From contig JBEKMY010000004.1 of assembly GCA_049523355.1 (NCBI GenBank), forward strand, positions 20,797 through 84,796: a DNA stretch of 64,000 bases, given 5' to 3'. The translations under genes and the position numbers were made by a program. The notes beneath the pieces are model-generated. The model saw nothing but the letters and a program-made list of their open reading frames with translations, did no database searches and was not told the DNA's origin. Below, piece after piece: positions 16,218-62,818 of the stretch (positions are counted from its first letter, which is position 1; each line of letters starts with the position of its first letter). The stretch is from Smithella sp. (lineage in GTDB: Bacteria > Desulfobacterota > Syntrophia > Syntrophales > Smithellaceae).

Positions 16218-18647
<2,430 letters not shown>

Positions 18648-18650
18648 CTA

Positions 18651-19760
18651 CTATATTTTTAACGGCATAATTATGCATAAATAACCGTCATCTTCAGCCT
18701 GTTTGATCAGTGATGGTTTTAATCCCACCCCAACTTCCAACAGAATATTTTCTTTATTAATCACAGATATGGCATCAATTAAATAATTTACATTAAATCC
18801 ACTATCAATATTTTCTCCATCATAATCTATATCTATCTCTTCCGTTGCTTCACCTACGTCCAAATTTGTGGAATTGAGTGTTAACTTACCTTTAGAAAAA
18901 GAAAGAATAACTCCACCATATCTTTCTGACGACACAACACTCATTCTTTTTAAGGCATGTAGAAAATATTCTTTTTCTAAAATAACTCGAATTCCTTTTT
19001 CAGTGGAAATAACTTTTTTATAATCAGGATAATCCGCATCAACCAAACTGACTTTTAAAAGAGTGTTTTCTGTTTTCACGACAAACATATTTTTATGTAA
19101 ACCTATTTTAACCTCTTCATTTTCATCAATAATTTTTTTGATTTCCATCAATCCCTTGCGGGGAATAATAATTCCTTTTCCAGTCTTTAAAAAAGGACCG
19201 GATATTAAACCTTTAGCCAACGCTAAACGATGACCGTCAGTAGCCACCATTCTTAATAAATGATCTACCCCATCCACTCCTTCTTCCAATAAAACACCAT
19301 TTAGATTTTTTCTGCTTTCATCAGTTGCCATAGCGAACGCTGTTTTATTAATTAAATCTTTTATGACCATTCCCTTTATTTTATAAAGAGGAATATCCTT
19401 ATCATCTGTAATACTTGGAAAATCTTCGGCCGGTAGTCCCGGTATTTTATAAAACGCCCGCTGAGATGATATTTTTACAATATTATTTTTCTGAGTGAAA
19501 ATAATAACTTCACCTTGAATTTCTCTTATCATTTCATATATCTTTTTTGCGGAAACAGTGATTTCACCATTTTCCGATATTTCCGCATCATAATCAGAAA
19601 TTAAAATTATTTCTCTATCAGTAGCAATTATTTTCAGCTTATTATTTTCAGCTTTTACAAGAATATTATTTAAAATAGGTATTGTTGTTTTTTTTTCGAC
19701 AATGCCTAATGTTTTTTGAATACCATCAAGAAAGGTTTCTCTGTTAATTTTAAATTCCAT
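18651..19760 (-). CDS. dnaN: DNA polymerase III beta sliding clamp
   Basis: A 369-aa DnaN-like protein positioned after dnaA. The SD AGGAGG lies upstream of the ATG. Confidence 0.9.
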   Translation of the reverse strand: MEFKINRETFLDGIQKTLGIVEKKTTIPILNNILVKAENNKLKIIATDREIILISDYDAEISENGEITVSAKKIYEMIREIQGEVIIFTQKNNIVKISSQRAFYKIPGLPAEDFPSITDDKDIPLYKIKGMVIKDLINKTAFAMATDESRKNLNGVLLEEGVDGVDHLLRMVATDGHRLALAKGLISGPFLKTGKGIIIPRKGLMEIKKIIDENEEVKIGLHKNMFVVKTENTLLKVSLVDADYPDYKKVISTEKGIRVILEKEYFLHALKRMSVVSSERYGGVILSFSKGKLTLNSTNLDVGEATEEIDIDYDGENIDSGFNVNYLIDAISVINKENILLEVGVGLKPSLIKQAEDDGYLCIIMPLKI

Positions 19761-19919
19761 ATTTCCTCCTTGTTTTTTATCTTAATATTATAATTTAGTT
19801 TCTTATATATAATTAGTATTAATAGTAATGCCTGTGGATATGTTGATTAATGCTTTTTTTTAAATAATTATAATTACTTTAAACACATTTAACTTGTTTA
19901 TAAATGAATATAAAAAAGT
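19761..19919. promoter_or_regulatory. Candidate oriC unwinding module in the dnaA-dnaN spacer
   Basis: Read on the minus strand from 19841 the sequence is: DnaA box ATATCCACA (8/9), a second abutting 7/9 box (TAATCAACA, 19849-19841), spacer GGCA, then TTA CTA TTA ATA CTA (19828-19814), then a very AT-rich stretch down to 19761. Confidence 0.55.
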
Positions 19920-21272
19920 TTATGATTTGTTCATTAAAATATCCTCCAATTCCTGAATCAAACCTTTTAACTTAGGGTCTGTTTTTATGCTATTTAATAT
20001 TTTATTATTAGCATAAATTACCGTGGAATGATCACGACCACCAATTTTTTGACCGATATCAGGAAAAGAATGATTTGTTAATTTTCTTGCTAAATACATG
20101 ACAATTTGCCTTGCGAAGACAATATTTTTATTTTTATTATGAGCTTTAATGTCAGATATTTTTATATTTAATTTTCCAGATATAACTTTAATGATTTCTT
20201 CAATGCTTACGTCACCCTGTTTATTATGCTTAACTAAGCTGCTTAATACTTCTTTTACTAAATCTAAATCAATTTCTCTGCCTGTTAAAGATGAATAAGC
20301 GCCTATTCTAACTAAAAAACCTTCCAGTTCACGAATATTTGATTCCACATGGGATGCGATATAATGAATAACATTATGCGGTAAATCAATTTTATTTTCC
20401 TGAATTTTTCTTTCGATAATAGCAATTTTAGTTTCTATTTCCGGTGGTTGAATATCGGCAATTAGTCCCCATTCAAAACGGGAACGAAGCCTACTTTCCA
20501 GATTAGGAATATCTTTTGGAAACTTATCACTGGTGACCACTATTTGTTTTCCGGAATCATGTAATGTGTTGAAAGTATGGAAAAATTCTTCCTGCGTTCG
20601 TTCTTTGCCTGCTAGAAAATGAATATCATCAATTAATAAACAACTGATGTTACGATATTTTTCTCTAAATTTTGGCATGCGGTCATAACGAATGGAATTA
20701 ATCATTTCATTCATAAATTCTTCTGCCGAAACATACATAATATTTAGCGTTGGGTGGATAGAAGACGAGAGAAGACCGATAGCATTAAGTAAGTGAGTTT
20801 TTCCTAAACCTGATCCTCCATAAATAAATAAAGGATTGTAATTTTTCGCCGGTTGTTTGGCTACGGCAATTGAAGCGGCGTGGGCAAATTGATTACACGA
20901 GCCAACCACAAACCTGTCGAAGTTGTAATTATCGTTGAGAAAAGAAAAGTTTTTGCTTTTACTGGTAATAGCCGTTGACGTATGTTTAGAATGCGTCGTC
21001 TGCTTGAACGACGGGTCGGAGATATTTTCCTGATTTTTTAATAGAACAAAATCAATATCAACATCTATACCTGCGGCAGCTTTTAAAGATTGTTTAATGG
21101 TAGATGTATAATTATCTAAAAGCCAATCTTTAAAAAATTTATTGGGCACAGCCAATTGCACATGCTGGTCTTCCATGGCAATTATTTTGATAGGTTTTAT
21201 CCATGTATCAAAATTTTGCTTACTTATTTTTTCTTGAATAAATTTAGTTGTTTTTCCCCAAAAATCTTCCAT
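19920..21272 (-). CDS. dnaA: Chromosomal replication initiator DnaA
   Basis: A 450-aa protein with the Walker A GGSGLGKTHL, an AAA+ domain and a C-terminal DNA-binding domain (DHSTVIYA). Confidence 0.95.
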   Translation of the reverse strand: MEDFWGKTTKFIQEKISKQNFDTWIKPIKIIAMEDQHVQLAVPNKFFKDWLLDNYTSTIKQSLKAAAGIDVDIDFVLLKNQENISDPSFKQTTHSKHTSTAITSKSKNFSFLNDNYNFDRFVVGSCNQFAHAASIAVAKQPAKNYNPLFIYGGSGLGKTHLLNAIGLLSSSIHPTLNIMYVSAEEFMNEMINSIRYDRMPKFREKYRNISCLLIDDIHFLAGKERTQEEFFHTFNTLHDSGKQIVVTSDKFPKDIPNLESRLRSRFEWGLIADIQPPEIETKIAIIERKIQENKIDLPHNVIHYIASHVESNIRELEGFLVRIGAYSSLTGREIDLDLVKEVLSSLVKHNKQGDVSIEEIIKVISGKLNIKISDIKAHNKNKNIVFARQIVMYLARKLTNHSFPDIGQKIGGRDHSTVIYANNKILNSIKTDPKLKGLIQELEDILMNKS

Positions 21273-21294
21273 TTAACAACCTTTATAAACACAC

Positions 21295-21324
21295 TTATCA
21301 ACAATTGTGGATAAGTGTGGAATA
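21295..21324. promoter_or_regulatory. DnaA-box cluster in the 58-bp parB-dnaA spacer
   Basis: TTATCAACA (21295-21303, 8/9), TGTGGATAA (21306-21314, the perfect reverse complement of TTATCCACA) and TGTGGAATA (21316-21324, 8/9). Confidence 0.7.
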
Positions 21325-21330
21325 CATATA

Positions 21331-22188
21331 TTATTTTAAATTATCAAGAATTAAATCCGCTAACCGGTTCAATTCATCCATAGACGTATAGCGAATTTCG
21401 ACAAATCCCTTTTTAGCCGAACCCTTAATTTGCACCTTTGCCATAAATTTTGCGGCTATTGATTTTTCCAGGTCAGTTAGAAAGTGGTCTTTTTTGACAT
21501 CTTGTTTTTTATCAATGTGAATCTTTTTTGCGTTTTGTATTAAACGTTCAGTTTCTCGGACATTTAAATCTTTTTGTAAGATTAAAGCCAGCGCCGCAAG
21601 TTGTTTTTCTGTTGAACTGCATGCCAGTAAACAGCGGGCATGGCCTGAAGAAATTTTCTTTTCCGTAAGAGCTTTTTTGGCTTGATCCGGCAATTTCAAA
21701 AGACGAATGGTATTGGCAATGGTCGAACGATCTTTGCCCACGCGCGAAGAAATTTCATCCTGAGAAAGTTTGAAATTTTCAATTAATGTTACGTAGGCAT
21801 CGGCTTCTTCCAGAGGATTTAATTCTTCACGCTGAATATTCTCAATCAGCGACATTTCGGCCGCCTGCATGTCTGTTGCTTCACGAATGGCAATAGGTAC
21901 ATCTTTTAAACCTATGGACTGAGCCGCTCTCCATCGCCGCTCTCCGGCAATAATTTCATATCCCTTTTCAGCCCTGCGGACAATAATCGGCTGAATAATA
22001 CCGCTGTTTTTAATGGAATCAATAAGCTGCTTTTGGTTTTGATCGTTAAAAGTTTTACGGGGTTGATAACGGTTTGGCCGCAACTCTTCAATGCCGCAGG
22101 AAAAAACATTCTTTTTCTTATCGAAGTCATTTAATAAATCCGGAAAAATTGCGCCAAGCCCTTTACCAAGCACATTTTTTTGTGCCAT
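21331..22188 (-). CDS. parB: Chromosome partitioning protein ParB (Spo0J)
   Basis: The N-terminus GLGKGLGAI, the GERRWRAA box and an HTH region. Confidence 0.9.
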   Translation of the reverse strand: MAQKNVLGKGLGAIFPDLLNDFDKKKNVFSCGIEELRPNRYQPRKTFNDQNQKQLIDSIKNSGIIQPIIVRRAEKGYEIIAGERRWRAAQSIGLKDVPIAIREATDMQAAEMSLIENIQREELNPLEEADAYVTLIENFKLSQDEISSRVGKDRSTIANTIRLLKLPDQAKKALTEKKISSGHARCLLACSSTEKQLAALALILQKDLNVRETERLIQNAKKIHIDKKQDVKKDHFLTDLEKSIAAKFMAKVQIKGSAKKGFVEIRYTSMDELNRLADLILDNLK

Positions 22189-22956
22189 TTACATTCCCCC
22201 CTGAATTATTTCCCCAGCCATTTCCATATAAGCCAAAGCGCCGCGCGATTTAATGTCGTAAAGAATAATAGGCAATCCGTGACTGGGGCTTTCCGAAAGC
22301 CGCACATTACGCGGGATCACCGTTTTAAAAACCTTATCGCCAAAATGTTTCCGCACATCATCGGATACCCGATGAGATAATAAATTGCGCTGATCAAACA
22401 TCGTTAGCAAAATACCGCCTAAAACCAGTTTTGGATTTAATTGCGCTTTTACCAGTTTGACAGTATTGAGCAAATATCCCAAACCTTCCATAGCAAAATA
22501 CTCGCACTGCAAAGGAACAATCAAATAATCGGATGCGACCAGGGCATTTACGGTCATAACACCCAGCGATGGCGGACAATCAATTACTATAAAATCATAA
22601 TGCCTGTCCAGAGAACTCAATAAATTACGCAACCGCTTTTCTTTATCTTCCAGACCAACAAACTCAACTTCAATGCCAATCAGATCCTGGTTAGACGGCA
22701 CAACATCAAGATGCGGTATTGCCGTGTTGATAATTACTTGTTCCAGAGGCACCTGACCGATCATCGCGTGATATAAATTAGCCGTCTGAAATGAATTTCT
22801 ATCCGCTCCGATACCGCTTGTTGAATTACCCTGAGAATCGCCATCAATGAGCAAAGTTTTTTTTTCCGCCGCCGCCAGGGAAGCAGATAAATTTATCGCG
22901 GTGGTGGTTTTACCGACACCACCCTTTTGGTTCGCTATACATATAATTTTATTCAT
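22189..22956 (-). CDS. parA: Chromosome partitioning ATPase ParA (Soj)
   Basis: The deviant Walker A KGGVGKTT. The stop codon abuts the parB start. Confidence 0.9.
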   Translation of the reverse strand: MNKIICIANQKGGVGKTTTAINLSASLAAAEKKTLLIDGDSQGNSTSGIGADRNSFQTANLYHAMIGQVPLEQVIINTAIPHLDVVPSNQDLIGIEVEFVGLEDKEKRLRNLLSSLDRHYDFIVIDCPPSLGVMTVNALVASDYLIVPLQCEYFAMEGLGYLLNTVKLVKAQLNPKLVLGGILLTMFDQRNLLSHRVSDDVRKHFGDKVFKTVIPRNVRLSESPSHGLPIILYDIKSRGALAYMEMAGEIIQGGM

Positions 22957-23046
22957 TATTTTATTGAGCGTAAAAAAATAAATTCTTTTGCAAGAACTGA
23001 AGTTAGCAGTAGCATAAAAAAATTCTTTTTAGAAGTTTTTTTTACT

Positions 23047-23709
23047 TTATTTTGTCTTTTCTCCGATAATAATTTTACGCTGTGCCTCTAAGCAGGGGAC
23101 GTTTATATCATATTGAATAAATTGAGATATTTTGTATTGATCTTTAACAGGTGAGCATTGTGTAAATTCCTCATCAACATTAGGGCCTTTCAAGGCAATT
23201 AGTTTTCCTCCCGGGACAAGAAAATATTCGCCATATGGCAGAAGTTCGGATATTTTAAAAGCGGCACGGGAAATTACAATATCAAATTTTTCTCTCCATG
23301 AATCTTTCTTGATAATATTTTCGACGCGGTCATGAAAAACAAAGGTCTGGGAAAGATTCAAAAGACGGATAATATGTTTTAAAAAAGAAACTTTTTTTCT
23401 ATTGGTTTCCAAAAGATAAACCTGTAATGAAGGCAGCGCTATTTTTAAGGGAAGACCAGGAAAACCCGCGCCGCATCCGACATCAATTAGTCTTGCGGCC
23501 GGCTTTTGAATAAATTGCAATGCTGAGAGTGAATCCAAAAAGTGACGCTTGATAATTTCCCGGGAAGAATTTTCGGAAATTAAATTTGTTTTAGCATTCC
23601 ACTGTAAAAGCTCATTTTTATAAACATCAAACAAAGCCAGTTGTTGCTTGTTGAGTTTAATGCCTAATTGCGGCGAGTTTTTACTCAGTAATAGAATTTC
23701 TTGATCCAT
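23047..23709 (-). CDS. rsmG: 16S rRNA (guanine527-N7)-methyltransferase RsmG (GidB)
   Basis: The SAM motif DVGCGAGFPGLPLKI and the position upstream of parAB. The track start at 23769 is a TTG, so the ATG at 23709 is used. Confidence 0.85.
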   Translation of the reverse strand: MDQEILLLSKNSPQLGIKLNKQQLALFDVYKNELLQWNAKTNLISENSSREIIKRHFLDSLSALQFIQKPAARLIDVGCGAGFPGLPLKIALPSLQVYLLETNRKKVSFLKHIIRLLNLSQTFVFHDRVENIIKKDSWREKFDIVISRAAFKISELLPYGEYFLVPGGKLIALKGPNVDEEFTQCSPVKDQYKISQFIQYDINVPCLEAQRKIIIGEKTK

Positions 23710-23864
23710 GGACAAGAAAATAGCAAAAAAAATCTTCTGACGCAAAGCGTAAATTAGTCCGGCCTGCAATTCAGCATGAAAATTAAAGGGACAAAGATAT
23801 ATTGCACTGGCTTACCGGCCGTTTAAGGAAAAAGAATTGCAAAGGCCACTCTGCATCAAGTCGA

Positions 23865-24824
23865 TTATAATTCATCGCTGATTTTCTTGCAATTATTGAG
23901 AATTTTAACACTTGGCGGTGAACTGGCAACAGGCACATGAATGAATTTTAAAATTAATGGTTGAAATTCTTGGAAATATTCAAGGCCACGTTTAGGATCG
24001 GAGGAAGGCAACTCGAGAGTGAGTGTAAAGATATTGCGTTCATGACCAGCATAGTTACCGAGCGATCCTGGATAAAAGCCAAATTTTTTATAAGGATAAT
24101 TTATGTCTTTATATGCTTGTTCCATCCATTTTTCAAAAGAATATAAATTTGATGATGGCCCGTCATAATCAAAGAAGTTAAGCGGTGAATGTACCGACAA
24201 TATCTTTTGCGGTTTGAATTTCTTTATCAAGGCAATTTGAAACTGTGTTTCCTGCTCTGATGATGGTTTTGCTCCCGGATAGTAACGCCTCTTTCTTTTT
24301 GTCTTTAATATCCATTGACGCATTGCGTTTGCCTGCCAGTCTTTTGTGGGGAAATTTCTATTAATATCAATGCCATTGGCATTGACGCGTGTTGGTGGTA
24401 TGGACAAGAAACCATCGGGATTGAGCAGTGGCGCAATGACAATACACTTGTCTTTAAACAATGCGGGATTGTCTTTAACGTAATGAGCAAGTTTGAACAT
24501 AAGATAGGCAGACGGCAACTCATCACCGTGAACGCAACCTAAAAATAAAATGCAGTTTCCGATGCTATTACCGTAATTAACGAACATAAGCGGGTGCTTG
24601 TTTTTTGTTGTCCGGTAATATTGCCATGGTATTTCTCCGGGATTTATGTCTGTCCATCCATAAAGGGCGTTAGATTTTTCCAATAGGCTAATGTATTCCT
24701 TAAAATCATTTGAAGAAGAATCGTAAGCAAATACCCGGGAAGGTAAAAACAGAAAGAACAACAATCCGGAAAAAAGACACCATGACAAAAAGATTTTTTT
24801 ACGTTTCGATATCTGATTGCACAA
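23865..24824 (-). CDS. Secreted M14-family zinc carboxypeptidase-like protein (MpaA/murein peptide amidase-like)
   Basis: A signal peptide, the HGDE zinc motif, DINRNFP, SVHSP and TLELP, all typical of M14 peptidases. The start codon is TTG (no nearby ATG). Confidence 0.65.
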   Translation of the reverse strand: MCNQISKRKKIFLSWCLFSGLLFFLFLPSRVFAYDSSSNDFKEYISLLEKSNALYGWTDINPGEIPWQYYRTTKNKHPLMFVNYGNSIGNCILFLGCVHGDELPSAYLMFKLAHYVKDNPALFKDKCIVIAPLLNPDGFLSIPPTRVNANGIDINRNFPTKDWQANAMRQWILKTKRKRRYYPGAKPSSEQETQFQIALIKKFKPQKILSVHSPLNFFDYDGPSSNLYSFEKWMEQAYKDINYPYKKFGFYPGSLGNYAGHERNIFTLTLELPSSDPKRGLEYFQEFQPLILKFIHVPVASSPPSVKILNNCKKISDEL

Positions 24825-25213
24825 TTTTTTTTTACTGACGGCTATACGGTAAATAGGTGTTTAATCCCTTCGTTATTATTTTGATGATCCGGTTCTTATA
24901 TCTTTGGCTTATTCGTTTAATGGAATCGCCTACATTTATACCGTTCCTCAATGTGAACTTAAATAGGCAGAGAAAATTATTTTGAAGTGAACATTATAGT
25001 AAGTTAATCCAGAAATCAATTCAAAAAACTTTTTTGCTAAATTCGGCAGCAAGCGCATTTCCCATAGCCTTCTTTGGGGTAAGCATGTAAATACCGAATG
25101 ATAATGTTTCCTCAGCATACATGTCTAAAAAGTTTTCTTTAATTGAAAAGCAAAGCAATTCATGATGATAAAATAAACTGAAATCATTGTTTGGAAAAGC
25201 TTCTACGGCGGGA

Positions 25214-25954
25214 TCATCGAGCTATAAGAAAAATCATAACGGATAAAATAATCACAACATGAATGGTGATGATGCTGAATTTATGCCTGAGATAAAATTC
25301 ATTTGCCTTTTGAATTCTCTCCAATCCGCCGCATAATTTCCGGAAACGTTCCAACCCTTCATATTTTTTGTCGTTGTCAGAAGAAAAATCGTTTTGAAAC
25401 GCAAACATGGGATAAACTGCGTAGATGTGATCGGTCAGAGGACGAAACAGAGTATCAATGACGATCCCCTGCCATGGTTGATAAGCAAGGGCTTCCGCGT
25501 AAGGTCTGTTTAAAACATACGCATGGGCCAGACTCTGATAGTGCACTTTTTGTATGAACGGATTAGCCGTTTTACGGCTTTCGCGTATTAATGCTCCCAG
25601 AAGCAGAACTTTCCAATCCGGATTTGCTCTTAAAAATTGAGTGCATTGCTTGAAGCGCTCAGCGTCAAATCTGTCAAAAATGACATCGTCTTCAAAAACC
25701 ACAATATTGTCCGCTCCGATCTCCACGCCCTTGCGCAGACAGGTCATGTGAGATTCATACATTCCCTGTTCGATATTCAAAGGGTGAGGTTTGACAATGA
25801 CGAATTCGACTTTTCCGTTGAGTCCTACTTCAGCAAACGATTTCGCGGCTGCCTGCCGCCGGTCTTGACGCCCTTCCAGAGAAATGCAGTAGATACGATC
25901 AAAAAAATCCCAGCCATCGTTTTGGTTTTCCACGATATCCTCTATAAATCGCAT
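25214..25954 (-). CDS. Glycosyltransferase family 25-like protein with a C-terminal membrane anchor
   Basis: The N-terminus IYCISLEGRQDRR and VFEDDVIF are GT25-like. The last approximately 20 residues are hydrophobic. Confidence 0.5.
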   Translation of the reverse strand: MRFIEDIVENQNDGWDFFDRIYCISLEGRQDRRQAAAKSFAEVGLNGKVEFVIVKPHPLNIEQGMYESHMTCLRKGVEIGADNIVVFEDDVIFDRFDAERFKQCTQFLRANPDWKVLLLGALIRESRKTANPFIQKVHYQSLAHAYVLNRPYAEALAYQPWQGIVIDTLFRPLTDHIYAVYPMFAFQNDFSSDNDKKYEGLERFRKLCGGLERIQKANEFYLRHKFSIITIHVVIILSVMIFLIAR

Positions 25955-26093
25955 TTTTCTTTACAGGACTGTTTTATAATATTAGTATTATACGGTGTCA
26001 AGAAATGACTGTTGAAATTAATATTAGCCGACAAATTAAATTACCGGGTGTCCGGTTCAAGAGCAACCGGATGGTTTTACAAAGTAAGGTTTT

Positions 26094-53240: not shown

Positions 53241-54128
53241 ATGTCGCAATATCTTAATCAAAATACCGTCAAAAGAAAAATCCCGCCTTTAATGATGCAG
53301 GATGTTGGCGGTGCGGAATTACCATACCTTTATTATGAAGGAGGAACTCCACAAATTCTTTTTGCTCATGCCACCGGTTTCCTGCCATGGCTCTGGCATC
53401 CCATCATAGAAGATTTGACGCCGCCGATTCAGGCATGGGTGCCTTATATTTGCAATTATCGCGATTGCGATCCGGAAAAAGGTGGTCTTGCCTGGAATAT
53501 TATCGCCAAAGATTTATCTGTTTTATGCAGTGCGCAGAACATTGAAAATCATCTGGCCGTCGGACATTCGATGGGAGCAACAGTGCTCACTATTGCCGCC
53601 GCTTCGTTGGGCATGCAGCCGCGCGCCATGATTCTGATCGAACCAATTTTTCTTCCGGAAGAATTTTACTCGATGGATATCAAGCTGAAAGATCATCCTC
53701 TCGCTTCGCAGTCCATAAAGAGAAAAAACAGCTGGAAAGATGAAAACGCAGCCCTGGAATATTTGAAATCAAAATCACTTTTTGCCGGATGGGACGAACA
53801 GATTCTGCAATTTTATCTGCAATACGGTATGGAGAAGCAACAGGAAGGAGAGTTAAAACTTGCCTGCTCTCCGAGAAATGAAGCCGCAATGTTTATGGGC
53901 GGCAAGAGCACTAATCCCTGGCCACTGATTAAACAATTAACCTGTCCGGTGCTTATCGTGGAAGGAGAAAAAAGTTCCAATAAAGAATTTGTTGATTTGT
54001 CCAAAGCCGTATCTTTGTTAAGCAATGGAAGATACAAATCTGTTCCTGACGCCGGACACTTAATTCCCATGCAGAAACCACAAGAAGTTGCTAAAATCAT
54101 AAAAGAATTTTTGGCAGGAATAACTTAA
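53241..54128 (+). CDS. Alpha/beta-fold hydrolase
   Basis: The nucleophile elbow GHSMGA and a C-terminal His region (PDAGHLIPMQKP). Confidence 0.75.
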   Translation: MSQYLNQNTVKRKIPPLMMQDVGGAELPYLYYEGGTPQILFAHATGFLPWLWHPIIEDLTPPIQAWVPYICNYRDCDPEKGGLAWNIIAKDLSVLCSAQNIENHLAVGHSMGATVLTIAAASLGMQPRAMILIEPIFLPEEFYSMDIKLKDHPLASQSIKRKNSWKDENAALEYLKSKSLFAGWDEQILQFYLQYGMEKQQEGELKLACSPRNEAAMFMGGKSTNPWPLIKQLTCPVLIVEGEKSSNKEFVDLSKAVSLLSNGRYKSVPDAGHLIPMQKPQEVAKIIKEFLAGIT

Positions 54129-54210
54129 GCAAACAATTGACGAATTCCAATAAATATGTAAACTTCTCATGGAAGTGATCTAATAAAAATCAACAAGGGG
54201 ATTTTGTTTG

Positions 54211-55062
54211 ATGGCTGAAAACGAAAATAATCAGCGAAGCCTGGAAAACAGCGGGAAATGTGTGCCCAAAATGTTCCTGACACTGCCGTTTACCTTTATC
54301 GGAGAAAAGGTTGTCGGCTGGATTAACGTTTTGGGTACGGCAACTATTTTCCTTGGCGCAGCACTCTGGAAAACATTTCGGCCCAAACAGTTTCCCAAGG
54401 TCATAGTGCAAATCTATTATATTGGAGCCAGCTCCACAACGATTATCATTCTGGTTGGCCTGTTTACCGGCATGGTTTTAGGTTTGCAATCATACCATGC
54501 TCTGAGTAAGTTCGGTGCGGTGGGCGGTCTTGGAGCGCTGGTGTCCCTTTCCCTGATCAGGGAATTGGGGCCCGTTCTTACGGCCATTATGATTACAGCC
54601 AGAGCGGGATCCGCCATCACAGCGGAAGTAGGCATTCAGCGCATTTCGGAACAGGTTGATGCCCTGCATACCATGCGGATTGATCCGTTTCGCTATCTCA
54701 TTAGCCCGAGAATTACTGCTTCGATTATCAGTTTTCCGCTGCTCACGGCGGTATTTGACTTTTTTGGCATTATAGGAGGTTATATTACCGGCGTCATGTT
54801 ATTGGGATTAAATGGCGGAGTTTATTCCCACAGCATTAAAGCCAACGTGGATATGAATGACCTCACCGACGGTTTTATCAAGGCGATAGTATTTGCGATT
54901 ATTGTTGCCACCGTCTGCTGTTATCAGGGATATTTTGTGCACATGCGCAAGGATAGCCACGGCGCCAAGGCTGTGGGGCTTGCGACAACTTCCGCTGTTG
55001 TGACCTCCTGCGTGTTGATTCTTGTTTCGGATTATGTGGTGACTTCACTGCTTTTAATATAG
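54211..55062 (+). CDS. mlaE: Phospholipid ABC transporter permease MlaE
   Basis: MlaE-type motifs (RELGPVLTAIMITARAGSAITAEVG). The track start at 54208 is a TTG and the ATG at 54211 follows it directly. Confidence 0.85.
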   Translation: MAENENNQRSLENSGKCVPKMFLTLPFTFIGEKVVGWINVLGTATIFLGAALWKTFRPKQFPKVIVQIYYIGASSTTIIILVGLFTGMVLGLQSYHALSKFGAVGGLGALVSLSLIRELGPVLTAIMITARAGSAITAEVGIQRISEQVDALHTMRIDPFRYLISPRITASIISFPLLTAVFDFFGIIGGYITGVMLLGLNGGVYSHSIKANVDMNDLTDGFIKAIVFAIIVATVCCYQGYFVHMRKDSHGAKAVGLATTSAVVTSCVLILVSDYVVTSLLLI

Positions 55063-55070
55063 AGAAAATT

Positions 55071-56315
55071 ATGAATACACCTCTGATTGAATTTAAAAAT
55101 ATCACCAAGCGCTTCGGATCGCACACGGTTCTGGAAAACGTGAATTTACAAATATACGAAGGGCAGGTTACCACTATTATTGGTCTCTCCGGTTCGGGAA
55201 AAAGCGTTCTGCTTAAGCATATCATCGGTCTGCTTCATCCTGATGAAGGGACGATTCTCTTTCGCGGTAAGGCTTTATCCGAAATGAAGAAATCCGAAAT
55301 ATCATCTTCTCTGCGTCAAATAAGTTACATGTTTCAGGGCAATGCTCTGTTTGATTCCCTGACGGTTTATGATAACATCGCCCTGCCCCTGAGAGAGACG
55401 ACAAGTTTGAAAAAAGAGGATATTAACCGCAGGGTTATGGCCAGAGTCGAACAGACGGAGCTTACCGAGGCTATTCACAGATATCCGTCAGAACTGTCCG
55501 GAGGAATGCAGAAAAGGGCGGCGCTGGCGCGCGCGCTGATCACCGATCCGCAAATAGTTTTGTTTGACGAACCCACGACTGGCCAGGACCCCGTCCGGAA
55601 AAACGCTATTTTGAGCATGATTGCCCAGTACCAGAGAAAATTTAATTTTACGGCGATCATGGTCAGTCACGAAATCCCGGATGTTTATTTTATATCCAAC
55701 CGGATTCTTGCTCTTTATGATAAATCCATCGTTTTTCAGGGCACTCCCGAGGAACTTGGCAATTTTAAGCATCCCTTCACCGATGAAGTTATCAATAGCC
55801 TGGAAGGTTTGCAGAAAGAACTAACAGGCCTTTATTCCCGAAGAAAGTTTAAAGTTTTGAATTATGCTCAGCTAAAGCATGGACAGGCGGACGAAAATTA
55901 CTGCGTCGCGGTTTTTACACTTTCGGATATGGATGCAATCGTTGCCGGCCTCGGACACGACACGGCGCAGGAAATAATTCACGCGATGGGATTGTATATT
56001 GATAAACATTTTGGCGCCATAGGCGGTTTTTCCACCCGCAATAAAGCCAATGAATTTGTTACGGTGCTTCCTTATTCAGATACGGCAGAAGCTGAAAAAA
56101 TTATGAATGAATTTGTTGATGATTTCCACAAACGTGGAATCAGCGATATCTGGGCGGAAGCTCAAAGGCGTGCGCCTTCGGATAAATGCGTTGATTTCGC
56201 CATCCGGGCTGGCATTGCCGAAGGGCATCCTGTTGCCGAAATAGATTCCATTATCGACTCGGCCAAATCTCGACAAAAAGAAATCGGGCGTTTGCAATGC
56301 GCCGCCAAGGAGTAA
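55071..56315 (+). CDS. mlaF: MlaF-type ABC ATPase fused to a C-terminal degenerate GGDEF-like domain
   Basis: Residues 1-245 carry Walker A GLSGSGKS, the signature LSGGMQKRA and Walker B VLFDEPTTGQD. Residues about 248-405 carry LTGLYSRRKF...FTLSDMDAIVAGLGHDTAQEII...NKANEFVTVLP, which aligns with a GGDEF fold, with KANEF in place of GG(D/E)EF. Confidence 0.8.
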   Translation: MNTPLIEFKNITKRFGSHTVLENVNLQIYEGQVTTIIGLSGSGKSVLLKHIIGLLHPDEGTILFRGKALSEMKKSEISSSLRQISYMFQGNALFDSLTVYDNIALPLRETTSLKKEDINRRVMARVEQTELTEAIHRYPSELSGGMQKRAALARALITDPQIVLFDEPTTGQDPVRKNAILSMIAQYQRKFNFTAIMVSHEIPDVYFISNRILALYDKSIVFQGTPEELGNFKHPFTDEVINSLEGLQKELTGLYSRRKFKVLNYAQLKHGQADENYCVAVFTLSDMDAIVAGLGHDTAQEIIHAMGLYIDKHFGAIGGFSTRNKANEFVTVLPYSDTAEAEKIMNEFVDDFHKRGISDIWAEAQRRAPSDKCVDFAIRAGIAEGHPVAEIDSIIDSAKSRQKEIGRLQCAAKE

Positions 56316-56319
56316 ACAA

Positions 56320-56775
56320 ATGAAAAAATACAAAGTAGAAACCATAGTGGGCATCTTTGTTTTTCTGGGACTGCTCTGTATCGGGTACATGACCGTGAAA
56401 CTAGGCAAAGTTTCTTTTTTCCAAGATGAATATTATCCCATAACCGCCAAATTCATTGCCGTTACCGGCCTGAGAGAAGGCAATCCGGTGGATATTATGG
56501 GTATAGAGGTCGGCAGAGTGGAAAAAATCACAATGGATCAGGAAAATCAGAAAGCGGTTGTGGAAATAAAGATCAAAAAAGGCGTAAAGATTTATGATGA
56601 TGCCATCGCTTCCATTAAAACAGAGGGCTTGATGGGCGATCAATATATAAGTATTGATCCGGGAGGATCCGGCACGCTTTTGGGGCCTCGCGGAACGATC
56701 ACGGAAACTCAGGCTCCCGTGGACATATTAGGACTCATTGGCAAATACGCATTTGGCGATGTAAAGAAACAGTAA
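56320..56775 (+). CDS. mlaD: MCE-domain protein MlaD
   Basis: An N-terminal TM anchor (VETIVGIFVFLGLL) and an MCE domain. 151 aa. Confidence 0.85.
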   Translation: MKKYKVETIVGIFVFLGLLCIGYMTVKLGKVSFFQDEYYPITAKFIAVTGLREGNPVDIMGIEVGRVEKITMDQENQKAVVEIKIKKGVKIYDDAIASIKTEGLMGDQYISIDPGGSGTLLGPRGTITETQAPVDILGLIGKYAFGDVKKQ

Positions 56776-56809: not shown

Positions 56810-57406
56810 ATGAAAAAACAACTCGCGGGATTAATAATTATACTTACGCTTTTTGTATTTGCTATTCCGGTATATGCCGGTGCCCCGCTGGATACGGTTA
56901 AAGTAAATGTGAACAATGTTCTGGATGTATTGCGTAATCCCAAACTTAAAGCCGAATCGGCCAAAGAGATTAAAAAGGATAAACTCCGGATAATTTACAA
57001 GACGATGTTTGATGAGAATGAATTTTCCAGGCGCACCCTGTCACGCAACTGGAGTAAGCTCAATCCTGCCGAACAAGTGGAATTTGTGAAGCTTTTTGAA
57101 CAGGTGCTGGAAAAATCATACGCGGACAAAATTCTGGACTATACGAACGAAAAAGTTGAATTCACTAAAGATGAGATGAAATCAGATACCCAGGCCGAGG
57201 TTCAGACAAAAATTATAACAGCATCCAAGGAAATTCCCATATTTTACCGGATGATTTTGAAAGACGGGAAATGGAAAGTATATGACGTTGTCGTGGAGAA
57301 TGTAAGCCTTGTTCAAAATTACCGCACGCAGTTCAATGATATACTGTCCAAGAATACGCCGGAGCAGTTACTGGAAACTCTGCGAAAAAAGGTAAGTAAG
57401 CCTTAG
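56810..57406 (+). CDS. mlaC: Periplasmic phospholipid-binding protein MlaC (Ttg2D/toluene-tolerance family)
   Basis: A signal peptide, 198 aa, MlaC-like sequence and operon position. Confidence 0.75.
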   Translation: MKKQLAGLIIILTLFVFAIPVYAGAPLDTVKVNVNNVLDVLRNPKLKAESAKEIKKDKLRIIYKTMFDENEFSRRTLSRNWSKLNPAEQVEFVKLFEQVLEKSYADKILDYTNEKVEFTKDEMKSDTQAEVQTKIITASKEIPIFYRMILKDGKWKVYDVVVENVSLVQNYRTQFNDILSKNTPEQLLETLRKKVSKP

Positions 57407-57636
57407 AAAAAACCGGTGATAAGTATTTTAATCAAAAACGTATCGATAGCGTAAAAAGAACGTCTCAACACTCAAAGTTGTATAGTAACGGCAAAGGAAC
57501 AATTTCCACATCAGAAGTGATATTGAAGCGTCACCCAGAAGTCTCTTTTTTACATAAGTCGGGCAAGTTGACAATGCCACAGGCATAAGCCGGTATTGCT
57601 TTGCCGACAAAGATATCGCTTGGATTTGGAATTGAT

Positions 57637-58596
57637 ATGGTGAGTATGAAAAAGTTTCATCATATGGAATCTTTTTTGTCTTTGATTTTCTTGTGCTTTT
57701 TTCTCGCGGCAGGTTATGCTTACGGATCACAACCGTCTTCCGTCGTTGTGTCGGAAGCAGCATCTTCTTCCGTTTCTGTTTTGCCGGATTCCAACTCCGG
57801 TGAGGTTACGGTAAAATCTTCGGACAAATCAGTTGACGCAATCAAGGATGAGTATAAAGATGAGGATGATCCCGATTCCGCCAACGATAAACTAAAAGAA
57901 GAAAGAGTGGAAATTGCCGATCCCCTGGAGCCGGTGAACAGAGCAATGCATCAGTTTAACGATAAGCTTTATTTCTGGGCGCTCAAGCCTGTCGCGCAGG
58001 GATACAAAGCAGTTGTTCCCGAACCTGCGCGCATCGGTGTGAGAAATTTCTTTTCCAATCTTGGATTTCCCGCCCGTTTTCTAAGTTGCCTGCTTCAGGC
58101 GGATTTCAATGGCGCGGGCACGGAAGCAGGCCGTTTTACGATAAATACTATCTGGGGCGTCGGTGGATTTCTTGATCCTTCTTCCGGCAAAGAGTTGAAT
58201 CTACAGAATCAAGACACAGATCTGGGGCAAACACTAGGCGTCTATGGCGTGGGGCAGGGTTTTTACATTGTCTGGCCGATACTGGGGCCTTCCAGTCCGC
58301 GCGACTCCATTGGTATCGCCGGCGATTATTTTCTGTCTCCCGTCTCTTACATTTCTCCGTGGTATGCCTGGTTGGGAGTGAGGACTTATGAGGAAGTGAA
58401 TGCCACATCTCTGAGAATCGGCGATTATGAAGCGCTGAAAAACGCGGCAATTGATCCTTACGTGGCGTTTCGCGATGCCTACATCCAATATAGGTTGAAT
58501 AAAGTTAAAGCCAGAAAAGCCAAACTTACATTATCCACTCCGCCCAAAGAGAGAACACCATCGGCCAATATGGCATTACCGGAAAAGGAAAATTAA
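57637..58596 (+). CDS. mlaA: MlaA/VacJ family lipoprotein-like protein
   Basis: DPLEPVNRAMHQFND...PVAQGY...NFFSNLG...N..GVGG is the VacJ signature. The track start at 57601 is a TTG. ATGs at 57637 and 57646 are both possible. Confidence 0.8.
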   Translation: MVSMKKFHHMESFLSLIFLCFFLAAGYAYGSQPSSVVVSEAASSSVSVLPDSNSGEVTVKSSDKSVDAIKDEYKDEDDPDSANDKLKEERVEIADPLEPVNRAMHQFNDKLYFWALKPVAQGYKAVVPEPARIGVRNFFSNLGFPARFLSCLLQADFNGAGTEAGRFTINTIWGVGGFLDPSSGKELNLQNQDTDLGQTLGVYGVGQGFYIVWPILGPSSPRDSIGIAGDYFLSPVSYISPWYAWLGVRTYEEVNATSLRIGDYEALKNAAIDPYVAFRDAYIQYRLNKVKARKAKLTLSTPPKERTPSANMALPEKEN

Positions 58597-59397
58597 ATGA
58601 AAAGAAAACTGATTATAAAAAATTTTCCGGTCATCGTTTTAACGGTATTATTAATTCTTTCGATTGGCCAGACAGTCAAGGCGTCCGGATTATTCGGTCC
58701 GTTGCAAACCGTTTCTAGAGAAGACGGCGGATTAAACACCGCTATCGGTTACTTTTATCATGAGGATACATACCAAAATGATACCAATCATATTATAAGG
58801 CAGAATGAGATTTATTCGCAGGCAGCGTACGGCGCAAAAAACATCTGGGAAATATACGCGCGAATAGGGATATCTGATCTAAAAATTTTTGATATTTTCA
58901 ATTCCACAGACGCTTCCACCACGACAAATAAAAATGATTTTGAGGAAAACTGGAAATTTTTCGGCACTCTGGGGGCAAAGGGTTTTTATCCGATAAACAA
59001 AGTATTCGGAGTAGGCGCCTTTGTACAGGGGACATATTATTTTAGCAACTTTACGGATGATATTGTGGGAACAATCAGCGGCACGCCTTTTACAACCGAC
59101 CTAAAGGTGAAAAATCTCTGGGACGTGAATTTCGGAGCCGGGCTTCAGGTCACCATCCCACATGGCATCAAGTTATACGCGGGTCCATATATCTATTATT
59201 CGGAAGCAGAGGTTTCTTTGGCATCCAATATTCCCGGTCTTGAATATTCGGCAGGAGATGTTTCAATTAAGAACAAGACAATGCTTGGCGGATTTACTGG
59301 ACTGGATATACCGCTTATCAAAGGATTTCATCTGAATATTGAAGGACAATTTTCAGACAGGTTTTCCGCCGGTGCCGCCGTGAGCTACACATACTGA
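58597..59397 (+). CDS. Small outer-membrane beta-barrel protein (unknown family), translationally coupled to mlaA
   Basis: A signal peptide, alternating amphipathic beta-strand pattern and a C-terminal aromatic residue (..AVSYTY). The ATG directly follows the mlaA TAA (TAAATG). Confidence 0.6.
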   Translation: MKRKLIIKNFPVIVLTVLLILSIGQTVKASGLFGPLQTVSREDGGLNTAIGYFYHEDTYQNDTNHIIRQNEIYSQAAYGAKNIWEIYARIGISDLKIFDIFNSTDASTTTNKNDFEENWKFFGTLGAKGFYPINKVFGVGAFVQGTYYFSNFTDDIVGTISGTPFTTDLKVKNLWDVNFGAGLQVTIPHGIKLYAGPYIYYSEAEVSLASNIPGLEYSAGDVSIKNKTMLGGFTGLDIPLIKGFHLNIEGQFSDRFSAGAAVSYTY

Positions 59398-60439: not shown

Positions 60440-60985
60440 ATGAAAGCGTTCAGAGAATCGATTATAAATATTATATATAAAGGAGCGACAAGCGGCAAAA
60501 GAATTCGAATGCTTCTTACCCCACTGGTCGGCTTTATCTTTTTCTGTATCATATCGCTTTTGATACTTGCCTCTTTTTTTCTGGATCGGTTTTTTGGATT
60601 TGCGGAATTCATTTCCAAGCCTTTGGAAATAACGATTTCCATGCCCTTCCTGATTTCAGGTTCCTGCTTGTGGTTATGGTGTGCAGGGAAATTTTTTAAA
60701 ACAAAAGGAACTCCTGTGCCAATAAATCCTCCGCCAAAATTGGTTACTGACGGTCCTTATGCTTATTCAAGAAACCCGATGATGACGGGTCTTTTTATGG
60801 TAATGGCCGGGATTGGCATTTTATTCGGTTCAGTGACGCTCACATTCTTGATAACGCCGTTATTTGTCTTTATGAGCATTCTTGAATTTAGATATATTGA
60901 AGAACCGGAATTGATGAAGCGTTTCGGCAAGAATTATACTGACTATAAAGAAAAAACTCCGATAATTATTCCCCGGATTCGTTGA
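60440..60985 (+). CDS. Isoprenylcysteine carboxyl / phospholipid methyltransferase-family membrane protein
   Basis: Four to five TM segments. GPYAYSRNPMMTG and EEPELMKRFG are typical of the ICMT/PEMT family. Confidence 0.7.
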   Translation: MKAFRESIINIIYKGATSGKRIRMLLTPLVGFIFFCIISLLILASFFLDRFFGFAEFISKPLEITISMPFLISGSCLWLWCAGKFFKTKGTPVPINPPPKLVTDGPYAYSRNPMMTGLFMVMAGIGILFGSVTLTFLITPLFVFMSILEFRYIEEPELMKRFGKNYTDYKEKTPIIIPRIR

Positions 60986-61746: not shown

Positions 61747-62487
61747 TTAAACCACTATTCTTAGTCCGTCGTAAGCAGAAATAGTTTCAGGAAATATAAA
61801 TCTCGCCTGAGCTTGTGCATTTTCTCTTTTTGCCATTGTTGTGTATAATGCCGCGTTAAAATGGGTAAGAACAAGTTTTTTTACTTTTGATTTTAATGCA
61901 AGTTTTGCGGAAAGTTGGGGATTCATGTGAGGCCAGGAATTCGATGTTTGTTTACTGAGCAGGGCACATTCAGAGATAAGCAGGTCAGCATTTCCGGAAA
62001 GTTCTTCAGAGTTTTTACAGTAACCGGTGTCGGTGCAATAACCTATAACTTTGTCGTCAATTTCAAACCGATAGCCTAAACACTTTGAAGCGTGCACAAG
62101 CGGCAGCGCCTGGAATTTTAAGGGGCTTTTATGCCAGCCGTCTTTAATGTCGATCACATTGCAGGGGAATGGCAGTTTATTGACAGGAATAGAATATTTA
62201 GGAGCGAGAAATTCTTTGATGGTCACCTTCGTTCCGGTTTGTCCTATGATCTCAAGCGACTTAAAATTAAATTTTGCAAGAGTGTGAAGACCTTCAATAT
62301 GATCAATGTGGAAATGACTAAGGAATAAATAGACTGGCATATCTTTTTTTATATACCTGTTTGCTTTGTGAATACCGTTTCCGGCATCAAGAATAATATA
62401 CGCCGTTTTAGTCTCTATCAGCGTACAAATCGTATTGCCGCAATCAGTGTCGAACCAGCCGTTAGTCCCCAGGAACGTAATCTTCAT
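61747..62487 (-). CDS. MBL-fold metallo-hydrolase (RNase Z/BN-like)
   Basis: The HFHIDHIEG metal-binding motif. An alternative ATG lies at 62502. The ATG at 62487 follows GAGGG. Confidence 0.75.
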   Translation of the reverse strand: MKITFLGTNGWFDTDCGNTICTLIETKTAYIILDAGNGIHKANRYIKKDMPVYLFLSHFHIDHIEGLHTLAKFNFKSLEIIGQTGTKVTIKEFLAPKYSIPVNKLPFPCNVIDIKDGWHKSPLKFQALPLVHASKCLGYRFEIDDKVIGYCTDTGYCKNSEELSGNADLLISECALLSKQTSNSWPHMNPQLSAKLALKSKVKKLVLTHFNAALYTTMAKRENAQAQARFIFPETISAYDGLRIVV

Positions 62488-62818
62488 TTTACCCTCATCC
62501 ATTCTTGTATCTGATTAAATGATACTTTTCAAATCGAAAAATATTTCTTTCTATAAGTCTTATTTTCCCATTTATATTCTTGAGCCGATTACCCGGAACT
62601 TATATTCCTGCTATAAACTTTTTTCTTTGCCTTCATCACCATTTAATTTCCTCTCTTCAAGGGCAAAAAGGAAAGGGGAATGACTAAAGAAAGCTTCTGG
62701 ACACCAGCCTGTGCCGGTGCCCCGGCCATGGATAACAGGCTATCTAATCGTCTTGAAAAAATCTCTTTGATCATGTATGAAAGTCCATCAACACAAATCA
62801 AGAGGTTGTTCAACAAAT

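Follow-up and report, generated by a model that had tools for sequence, protein, structure and literature searches.

MlaF, the ATPase of the Mla transporter, acts as a dimer under MlaE2. The regulation of Mla transporters is poorly understood, and to our knowledge the MlaB/handshake system of the gamma-proteobacteria is the sole post-translational handle on Mla. In E. coli, MlaF has a C-terminal extension of about 25 residues that wraps round the neighboring MlaF as a "handshake" and is required for the protein to stay on MlaE, and MlaF also needs MlaB in order to associate with MlaE (PMC7367683). Until recently, it was disputed in which direction the Mla system transports; MlaA, MlaB and MlaC have a sparse distribution, and the ancestral core of the system is MlaEFD (Grasekamp et al. 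2023, PMC10665443). Here we describe the mlaF gene in a stretch of 64,000 nucleotides from Smithella sp. (assembly GCA_049523355.1, contig JBEKMY010000004.1, positions 20,797 to 84,796 of the forward strand), which is referred to as the window and to which all coordinates below apply. The product of this gene continues beyond the ATPase into a helical stalk and a degenerate GGDEF-fold domain. The fusion is conserved in a family of such proteins, the domain is predicted not to be a diguanylate cyclase, and we consider the chances about even that it serves as a C-terminal dimerization and regulatory module of the MlaF ATPase dimer.

The two parts of the fusion come from well-known families, and it is not new for an ABC ATPase to carry an accessory C-terminal domain; ligand control has been shown for the domains of MalK, MetN, ModC and OpuA/OpuC. 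Degenerate GGDEF domains that are known receptors have retained the RxxD I-site (PelD, PopA) or else the GTP/ATP A-site (PdeA, GdpP). The Smithella protein is like MlaF of the MlaFEDB complexes of E. coli, A. baumannii and P. aeruginosa (PDB 6xbd, 7d06 and 7ch8) in having an intact N-terminal ATPase, of 236 residues here, and in the position of its gene, which lies between mlaE and mlaD and is followed by mlaC and then mlaA. It differs in that there is no MlaB gene and that the handshake tail of about 25 residues is replaced by a stalk and a GGDEF-fold domain of 160 residues. The domain shares a GGDEF fold, a non-consensus signature and an expected lack of cyclase activity with LapD, PelD, PopA, FimX, CsrD, GdpP/YybT and PdeA but, unlike PelD, PopA, PdeA and GdpP, the Smithella MlaF family keeps neither I-site nor A-site. 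A helical stalk that leads through LTGL-x-x-R into a GGDEF fold is also found in DgcB (6ttr), SadC (4wxo), WspR, DgcR and SiaD, which are the top profile or fold matches; in those proteins, the N-terminal part is a sensor dimer and the cyclase that it controls is active, whereas here an ATPase dimer is joined to a dead GGDEF domain. As in MalK, MetN, ModC and the CBS-containing OpuA/OpuC, the additional domain comes after the ATPase core in one polypeptide, and its two copies are expected to pair below the ATPase subunits; the folds in those proteins are TOBE, ACT-like and CBS rather than GGDEF, so that the analogy would be functional only.

Domain Organization of the MlaF Fusion Protein

The gene and the parts of its product are as follows.

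55071..56315, plus strand: mlaF-GGDEF-like fusion gene, 414 amino acids (aa) plus stop.
55071..55778, plus strand: ABC nucleotide-binding domain of MlaF type, residues 1-236, with all catalytic motifs intact.
55779..55838, plus strand: linker or stalk helix, residues 237-256, TDEVINSLEGLQKELTGLYS, with a heptad pattern and a modeled helix.
55821..56300, plus strand: degenerate GGDEF-fold domain, residues ~251-410, located by Pfam PF00990, by a family profile against the PDB and by Foldseek.
55917..55970, plus strand: residues 283-300, the segment aligned to the canonical D-x-D-x-F-K-x-I-N-D...G-H-x-x-G-D block.
56016..56027, plus strand: A316-I317-G318-G319 at the I-site-equivalent position, instead of RxxD, within a near-invariant GGFSTR motif.
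56043..56057, plus strand: KANEF (K325-A-N-E-F329) instead of GG(D/E)EF, from the translation and aligned with canonical GGDEF/GGEEF.

The open reading frame (ORF) is present on the plus strand with the boundaries and length given in a first-pass annotation of this DNA, which had placed the end of a complete ABC ATPase near residue 245 and had followed it by an extension of about 165 residues. The nucleotide-binding domain is indeed complete, and the same frame runs on without a stop, but the core ends near residue 236 and the extension is about 178 residues long. Pfam ABC_tran matches residues 21-170 (E = 1.9e-36), and the Q-loop is present together with Walker A (GLSGSGKS, 38-45), the signature (LSGGMQKRA, 142-150), Walker B (IVLFDEPT, 162-169) and the H-loop (VSHE, 198-201). 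The closest PDB relatives of the ATPase part are the MlaF proteins of A. baumannii (3.6e-53), E. coli (6e-50) and P. aeruginosa, after which the mycobacterial Mce ATPase ranks next; OpuCA and a MalK-like protein are also among its solved relatives. The top NCBIfam model is MlaF, with a score of 196 bits that is below the equivalog cutoff of 441 bits. The name MlaF for the ATPase part is well founded because its closest solved relatives are MlaF proteins and because of the operon in which it lies.

The alignment to solved MlaF proteins stops at HPF-DEVI-SLE, the start of the C-terminal extension of E. coli MlaF. Judged by this alignment, the predicted position of the added domain is that of the handshake tail and not that of MlaB. 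Within the extension, conservation is highest in the stalk. In the family, positions 240/241, 244, 247, 251 and 254, spaced by 3-4 residues, are occupied by L, I, V, M or F in at least 96%, and E239, S243, E245 and E250 are at least 90% conserved. The segment is predicted to be helical in AlphaFold models of both the full-length protein and the extension only. The pattern is that of a putative dimeric coiled-coil stalk of the kind that leads into the GGDEF domains of many cyclases.

The first-pass annotation had described the extension as GGDEF-like and had proposed a comparison with the Pfam GGDEF model. PF00990 matches residues 250-347 above its gathering score of 23.8 bits, with 25.9 bits for the complete protein and 28.0 bits for the extension by itself, and 39 of 43 diverse family members match it individually (best E = 8.2e-12). 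The match spans only positions 5-106 of the 161 in the profile, and the C-terminal third is therefore divergent. As a single-sequence query of the PDB, the extension gave weak matches (best E = 0.058, with the LapD GGDEF domain 3pjw at the top), so that a family profile was required. When all PDB sequences were compared with a profile of the extension built from the 43 family members, SadC was the top match (2.7e-12), and DgcR, PleD (1.9e-8), WspR and LapD were among the leaders that followed. All of the 49 top-ranking matches (E up to 0.0076) are GGDEF-domain entries by name, save two that are named "ammonium transporter" and were matched in their C-terminal region.

The AlphaFold2 model of residues 237-414 has a mean predicted local distance difference test score (pLDDT) of 80.6, with about 90 in the core, and its elements are arranged in the order beta1-alpha1-alpha2-beta2-beta3-alpha3-beta4-alpha4-beta5. 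All of the top 50 matches of this model in a Foldseek search of the PDB are GGDEF domains, the best with E = 2.1e-7, a probability of 1.00 and a template modeling (TM) score of about 0.6. The longest alignments (175-185 columns) are to structures that comprise a stalk and a GGDEF domain, namely DgcB 6ttr, SadC 300-487, WspR-GCN4 and SiaD. A canonical REC-GGDEF protein, P0345, aligns with 33% identity over 102 residues; the C-terminal third, which aligns neither to P0345 nor to the Pfam model, is still aligned in Foldseek. No STAS match for the extension was found in Pfam and, the two "ammonium transporter" names aside, the profile and fold searches yield GGDEF. The two profile comparisons and the predicted structure, as three independent lines, together confirm the assignment of the extension as a GGDEF-fold domain.

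Loss of the Canonical Active and Inhibitory Site Residues

Functional positions were placed by alignment to SadC and to P0345. In PleD numbering, we take the canonical residues to be D327 (the Mg-binding Asp), K332 (Lys) and the guanine-binding N335 and D344. The position of D327 is occupied by T283 (T or S in 78% of the family), that of K332 by D288 (D, N or E in the family), that of N335 by V291 (I or V) and that of D344 by Q300 (Q in 93%). There is no RxxD anywhere in the extension of this MlaF, as had been noted earlier, and of 271 unique family sequences in which the extension is near-complete, none has one at the I-site position, which lies five residues upstream of the signature motif. 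The translation and the alignment to canonical domains agree with the earlier placement of KANEF at the signature position, where GG[DE]EF likewise occurs in 0 of the 271. The residues that have taken their place are themselves conserved: G318, G319 and S321 in at least 95% (G319 in 95%), R323 in 99%, N327 in 80% and E328 in 94%.

Two further features of the alignment concern variation within the family. An Asp is kept at the Mg-binding position (the equivalent of residue 283) in about 8% of members. A distant subgroup of 12 sequences that are similar to the family member P0344 has GSGEI at the position equivalent to 325-329, which suggests that degeneration took different routes in different branches. 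An assignment of K403 and R407 as the counterparts of the phosphate-binding Lys and Arg of PleD (K442 and R446) was dropped; the C-terminal third fails to align with canonical domains, and two alternative hand alignments disagree.

Because GG[DE]EF is present in none of the 271 sequences and the A-site residues are replaced, the domain is predicted not to be a diguanylate cyclase in this or any other member of the family, a reading already given as probable in the first-pass annotation on the basis of KANEF and the lack of an RxxD I-site. Public records label the proteins as generic ABC ATPases, and one NCBI record gives the title "diguanylate cyclase" to a fragment from the family, which calls for caution in annotation. 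This title, and the score against PF00990, are what could be cited for an active diguanylate cyclase fused to MlaF. We rejected that explanation as next to impossible in view of the replaced signature motif and the substitution of the Mg-binding Asp and of the active-site Lys, Asn and Asp.

The conservation of the substituted residues bears on another explanation, namely that the domain is a ligand sensor in which a cytoplasmic small molecule, bound at the remodeled former active site, switches the MlaF ATPase allosterically. The molecule sensed could be an unrelated metabolite, or else a nucleotide or second messenger bound in a non-canonical mode, and retrograde lipid transport would be coupled to a cellular signal; this generalizes the proposal of the first-pass annotation. 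The residues at the former A-site and I-site are conserved far above background, as is seen for Q300, R323 and E328, and the extension is under purifying selection (see below). There are precedents in degenerate GGDEF domains that bind GTP (PdeA/CC3396), ATP (GdpP/YybT) or cyclic di-GMP (c-di-GMP; PelD and PopA), and in C-terminal domains of ABC ATPases that bind regulators (methionine in MetN, molybdate in ModC, c-di-AMP at the CBS domains of OpuCA). In addition, the residue equivalent to PleD D344, which is Q300 here, sets base specificity in the Hypr GGDEF enzymes.

The family appears to have kept neither of the nucleotide-binding modes known for degenerate GGDEF domains, i.e. GTP or ATP at the A-site and c-di-GMP at the I-site. 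The four mappable GTP-site residues and RxxD are lost family-wide, and this argues against binding of GTP or c-di-GMP by known modes, although a new mode could still apply. The link to GTP or c-di-GMP signaling put forward in the first-pass annotation is weakened by these replacements, which extend to essentially all of the 271 sequences. Further points that tell against a sensor are that the C-terminal third, which in canonical domains includes the phosphate-binding Lys/Arg helix, aligns to neither the Pfam model nor P0345, that no canonical GGDEF gene was found in the window or in the related loci examined, and that no EAL or PilZ Pfam match was found within 10 kb on either side of the operon. 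We regard a ligand sensor of any kind as possible but rather unlikely. The narrower proposal that the conserved pocket (GGFSTR...NEF and Q300) binds a nucleotide or second messenger non-canonically, and that the MlaF ATPase is its direct receptor, is slightly more doubtful again; if it were true, outer-membrane lipid homeostasis would be tied to a cytoplasmic signal in syntrophic Desulfobacterota, and the protein would represent a new class of receptor for nucleotide signaling and the first ligand-gated Mla transporter.

Distribution and Selection of the Fusion

The spread of the architecture, a question raised in the first-pass annotation, was judged by the source names of metagenome-assembled genomes and one genome scan. 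A search with the full-length protein returned more than 120 clusters (at the 90% identity level) of 408-431 aa and 73-91% identity which, where named, are from Smithella, Smithellaceae, Syntrophaceae, Syntrophales and "Deltaproteobacteria" metagenome-assembled genomes. Word-indexed searches with the extension alone gave only fragments of at most 333 aa; the full-length relatives came from the full-length query. When the extension by itself was run exhaustively with HMMER against 1.84 billion representatives, only 116 clusters reached E <= 0.001. Many of these are fragments, and the distant full-length members P0243, P0316 and P0344 are among them; one cluster contains a Syntrophobacterales protein. 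The fusion is accordingly found in Syntrophales and Syntrophobacterales metagenome-assembled genomes. The genome scan used a single-protein query and reached close relatives only, so that taxonomic breadth is under-sampled.

An identical protein is encoded on 23 public contigs. At 12 Smithella/Syntrophales genomic loci, the extension is 65-95% identical and the order of the operon is unchanged. The distant members P0243, P0316 and P0344 (43%, 29% and 26% identity in the extension) are each encoded within an mlaE-mlaF*-mlaD-mlaC operon, in which mlaF* denotes the fusion. The MlaF-GGDEF architecture is therefore confirmed as real and conserved, and its association with the Mla operon appears to be ancient and stable, down to 26% identity. 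Pairwise ratios of nonsynonymous to synonymous substitution (dN/dS), calculated by the Nei-Gojobori method for the window and 13 loci, have a median of 0.143 in the extension and 0.063 in the ABC part. The extension is clearly under purifying selection and evolves about twice as fast as the ATPase. Full-text literature searches found no description of an MlaF-GGDEF or ABC-ATPase-GGDEF fusion, and the architecture is apparently undescribed so far. Fusion to an ABC ATPase is a new context for degenerate GGDEF domains.

Proposed Role of the Extension

The explanation that we prefer, and to which we give an even chance, is that the extension is a C-terminal dimerization and regulatory module of the MlaF ATPase dimer. 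Units that comprise a stalk and a GGDEF domain, and the GGDEF fold itself, are built to pair. Since there are two MlaF subunits per transporter and each carries a stalk and GGDEF domain of the pairing type, a homodimeric module would be the simplest arrangement. The two extensions would pair beneath both ATPase domains, where they would tether the subunits to each other and help to hold them on MlaE, a part played in E. coli by the handshake tail and MlaB. The module could also set the ease of ATP-driven closure, by keeping the subunits at a fixed distance or letting that distance change, much as C-terminal regulatory domains do in MalK, MetN, ModC and OpuA, by analogy rather than homology. 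Such a module would probably have no small-molecule ligand. In that case a signaling fold would have been recycled as a structural dimerizer, whereas a domain that does bind a ligand would link envelope lipid transport to signaling.

Several observations weigh against a dimerization module. The full-length monomer model has a predicted TM score (pTM) of 0.54 and does not fix the orientation of the domain to the ATPase, and the pLDDT of the stalk is low (about 55) in the model of the extension only. The substituted residues of the former active site (GGFSTR, N327-E328 and Q300) are strongly conserved, and a pure tether has no obvious need of a conserved pocket, which hints at a surface for a ligand or a partner. 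Lastly, most Desulfobacterota MlaF proteins appear to manage without the domain, as it is found in only 116 representative clusters.

A surface for a partner would also be consistent with a protein-recruitment platform, in which another protein, for instance a canonical GGDEF enzyme or some other factor of envelope homeostasis, pairs with the dead GGDEF domain, so that the partner is localized or sequestered at the transporter. GGDEF domains are generally built to pair with a second GGDEF domain, and the surface at the former active-site hairpin is conserved. However, apart from Mla components, no conserved candidate for a partner gene lies beside the operon in the examined loci, and a homodimer is the simpler arrangement with two MlaF subunits in each transporter. 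We consider recruitment of a heterologous partner improbable. Whichever role applies, the lineage with the fusion is a natural experiment on how the MlaF ATPase dimer is held and controlled.

Relationship of the Extension to MlaB

No STAS domain was found among the ten small free-standing ORFs of the window or in the Pfam context within 10 kb on either side of the identical gene on other contigs, and the intergenic gaps of the operon are too short to hold a gene of about 100 aa. The absence of mlaB from the locus, noted in the first-pass annotation, is thus upheld. It had been taken to suggest that the fused domain may replace MlaB. In its strongest form, this explanation holds that the domain is a cis-acting MlaB substitute, which binds to the helical subdomain of MlaF where MlaB does in E. 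coli and is needed for the stability of MlaF and its association with MlaE. The locus has all of the other E. coli-type parts (MlaA, MlaC, a short MlaD, MlaE and MlaF) and no STAS gene, and the dependence of E. coli MlaF on MlaB for association with MlaE also counts in its favor.

The distribution of MlaB points the other way. In the part of Supplementary Dataset 1 of Grasekamp et al. 2023 (PMC10665443) considered here, MlaB is scored 0 for each listed Deltaproteobacteria genome, including those of Geobacter sulfurreducens, two Pelobacter species, Desulfovibrio vulgaris, Desulfomicrobium, Desulfococcus and Desulfocapsa, which have MlaA and MlaC. As far as this portion of the dataset extends, absence of a linked mlaB would be a property of the whole former class Deltaproteobacteria and not of the lineage with the fusion; the search for MlaB in that study was based on synteny, so that a distant, unlinked STAS partner is possible. 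Among the sampled genomes, MlaB is missing even from carriers of MlaA and MlaC with a presumably unfused MlaF. On this sampling, there would have been nothing to replace in the lineage, and the fused domain therefore did not take the place of an MlaB that had been lost; the part that it replaced would more likely be the MlaF tail. Its fold is GGDEF, not STAS, and a stalk of dimer type attaches it at the position of that tail. An MlaB substitute in cis consequently seems a poor prospect. A looser functional analogy is possible, in which both the domain and MlaB stabilize the MlaF dimer on MlaE in the transporter, although MlaB has a STAS fold, is a separate polypeptide and has another point of attachment.

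The mla Operon and Neighboring Genes

The window contains an mla operon with the order mlaE-mlaF-mlaD-mlaC-mlaA on the plus strand. The first-pass annotation had given the order from mlaE to mlaC, which holds, and mlaA and a conserved gene for a 266-aa protein come after mlaC. The genes other than the fusion are as follows.

54208..55062, plus strand: mlaE permease, a 284-aa ORF that begins with TTG; the start chosen by gene callers is one codon further on (283 aa).
56320..56775, plus strand: mlaD, short (151 aa), with a single MCE domain (Pfam MlaD, 1.7e-22).
56810..57406, plus strand: mlaC, periplasmic lipid-binding protein (Pfam MlaC, 1.6e-46).
57601..58596, plus strand: mlaA, outer-membrane lipoprotein (Pfam MlaA, 1.3e-69), an ORF from TTG; gene callers start at ~57637 (319 aa).

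The mlaE product matches Pfam MlaE (9.4e-74) and the NCBIfam MlaE-family model TIGR00056, with 240.9 bits that exceed the cutoff, and mlaE adjoins the fusion gene on other contigs also. The mlaD product passes the NCBIfam model OM_asym_MlaD (143.5 bits, cutoff 135). The top NCBIfam model for the MlaC-family protein is HpnM, a hopanoid-associated MlaC-like family (79 bits, under the cutoff of 160), and the E. coli-type MlaC model gives only 30 bits. The Smithella system and E. coli Mla may differ in their substrate. A link to hopanoid transport was considered by way of this match and set aside; a preprint on HpnM/HpnS with HpnN is silent on MlaF.

The 266-aa ORF (58597-59397, plus strand) begins at the base that follows the mlaA stop and is conserved right behind mlaA on other contigs that carry the operon. 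Its product has an N terminus like a signal peptide, ends in ...AVSYTY and has no Pfam match and no PDB sequence match. The beta-barrel partners of MlaA in E. coli are OmpC/F, and by analogy we speculate that this protein could be an outer-membrane beta-barrel partner of MlaA. A gene for an alpha/beta-hydrolase (53241-54128, plus strand) precedes mlaE by 80 bp in the same orientation, a position that is conserved on other contigs with an identical MlaF; it may be co-transcribed with the operon, and a role as a lipase or esterase would be speculative.

A short way downstream of the operon is a gene for a membrane methyltransferase of the PEMT/ICMT family (phospholipid methyltransferase family; 60440-60985, plus strand). 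About 5 kb downstream, on the minus strand (61747-62502), a metallo-beta-lactamase-fold protein is encoded, the Pfam matches of which include Anti-Pycsar_Apyc1, a family of cyclic-nucleotide phosphodiesterases; it may simply be a generic hydrolase of this fold. At a distance from the operon, the block at 18001-26000 has a G+C content of 0.33-0.39, as compared with about 0.42-0.48 elsewhere in the window, and its long ORFs are all on the minus strand; it may be horizontally acquired or of surface-polysaccharide type.

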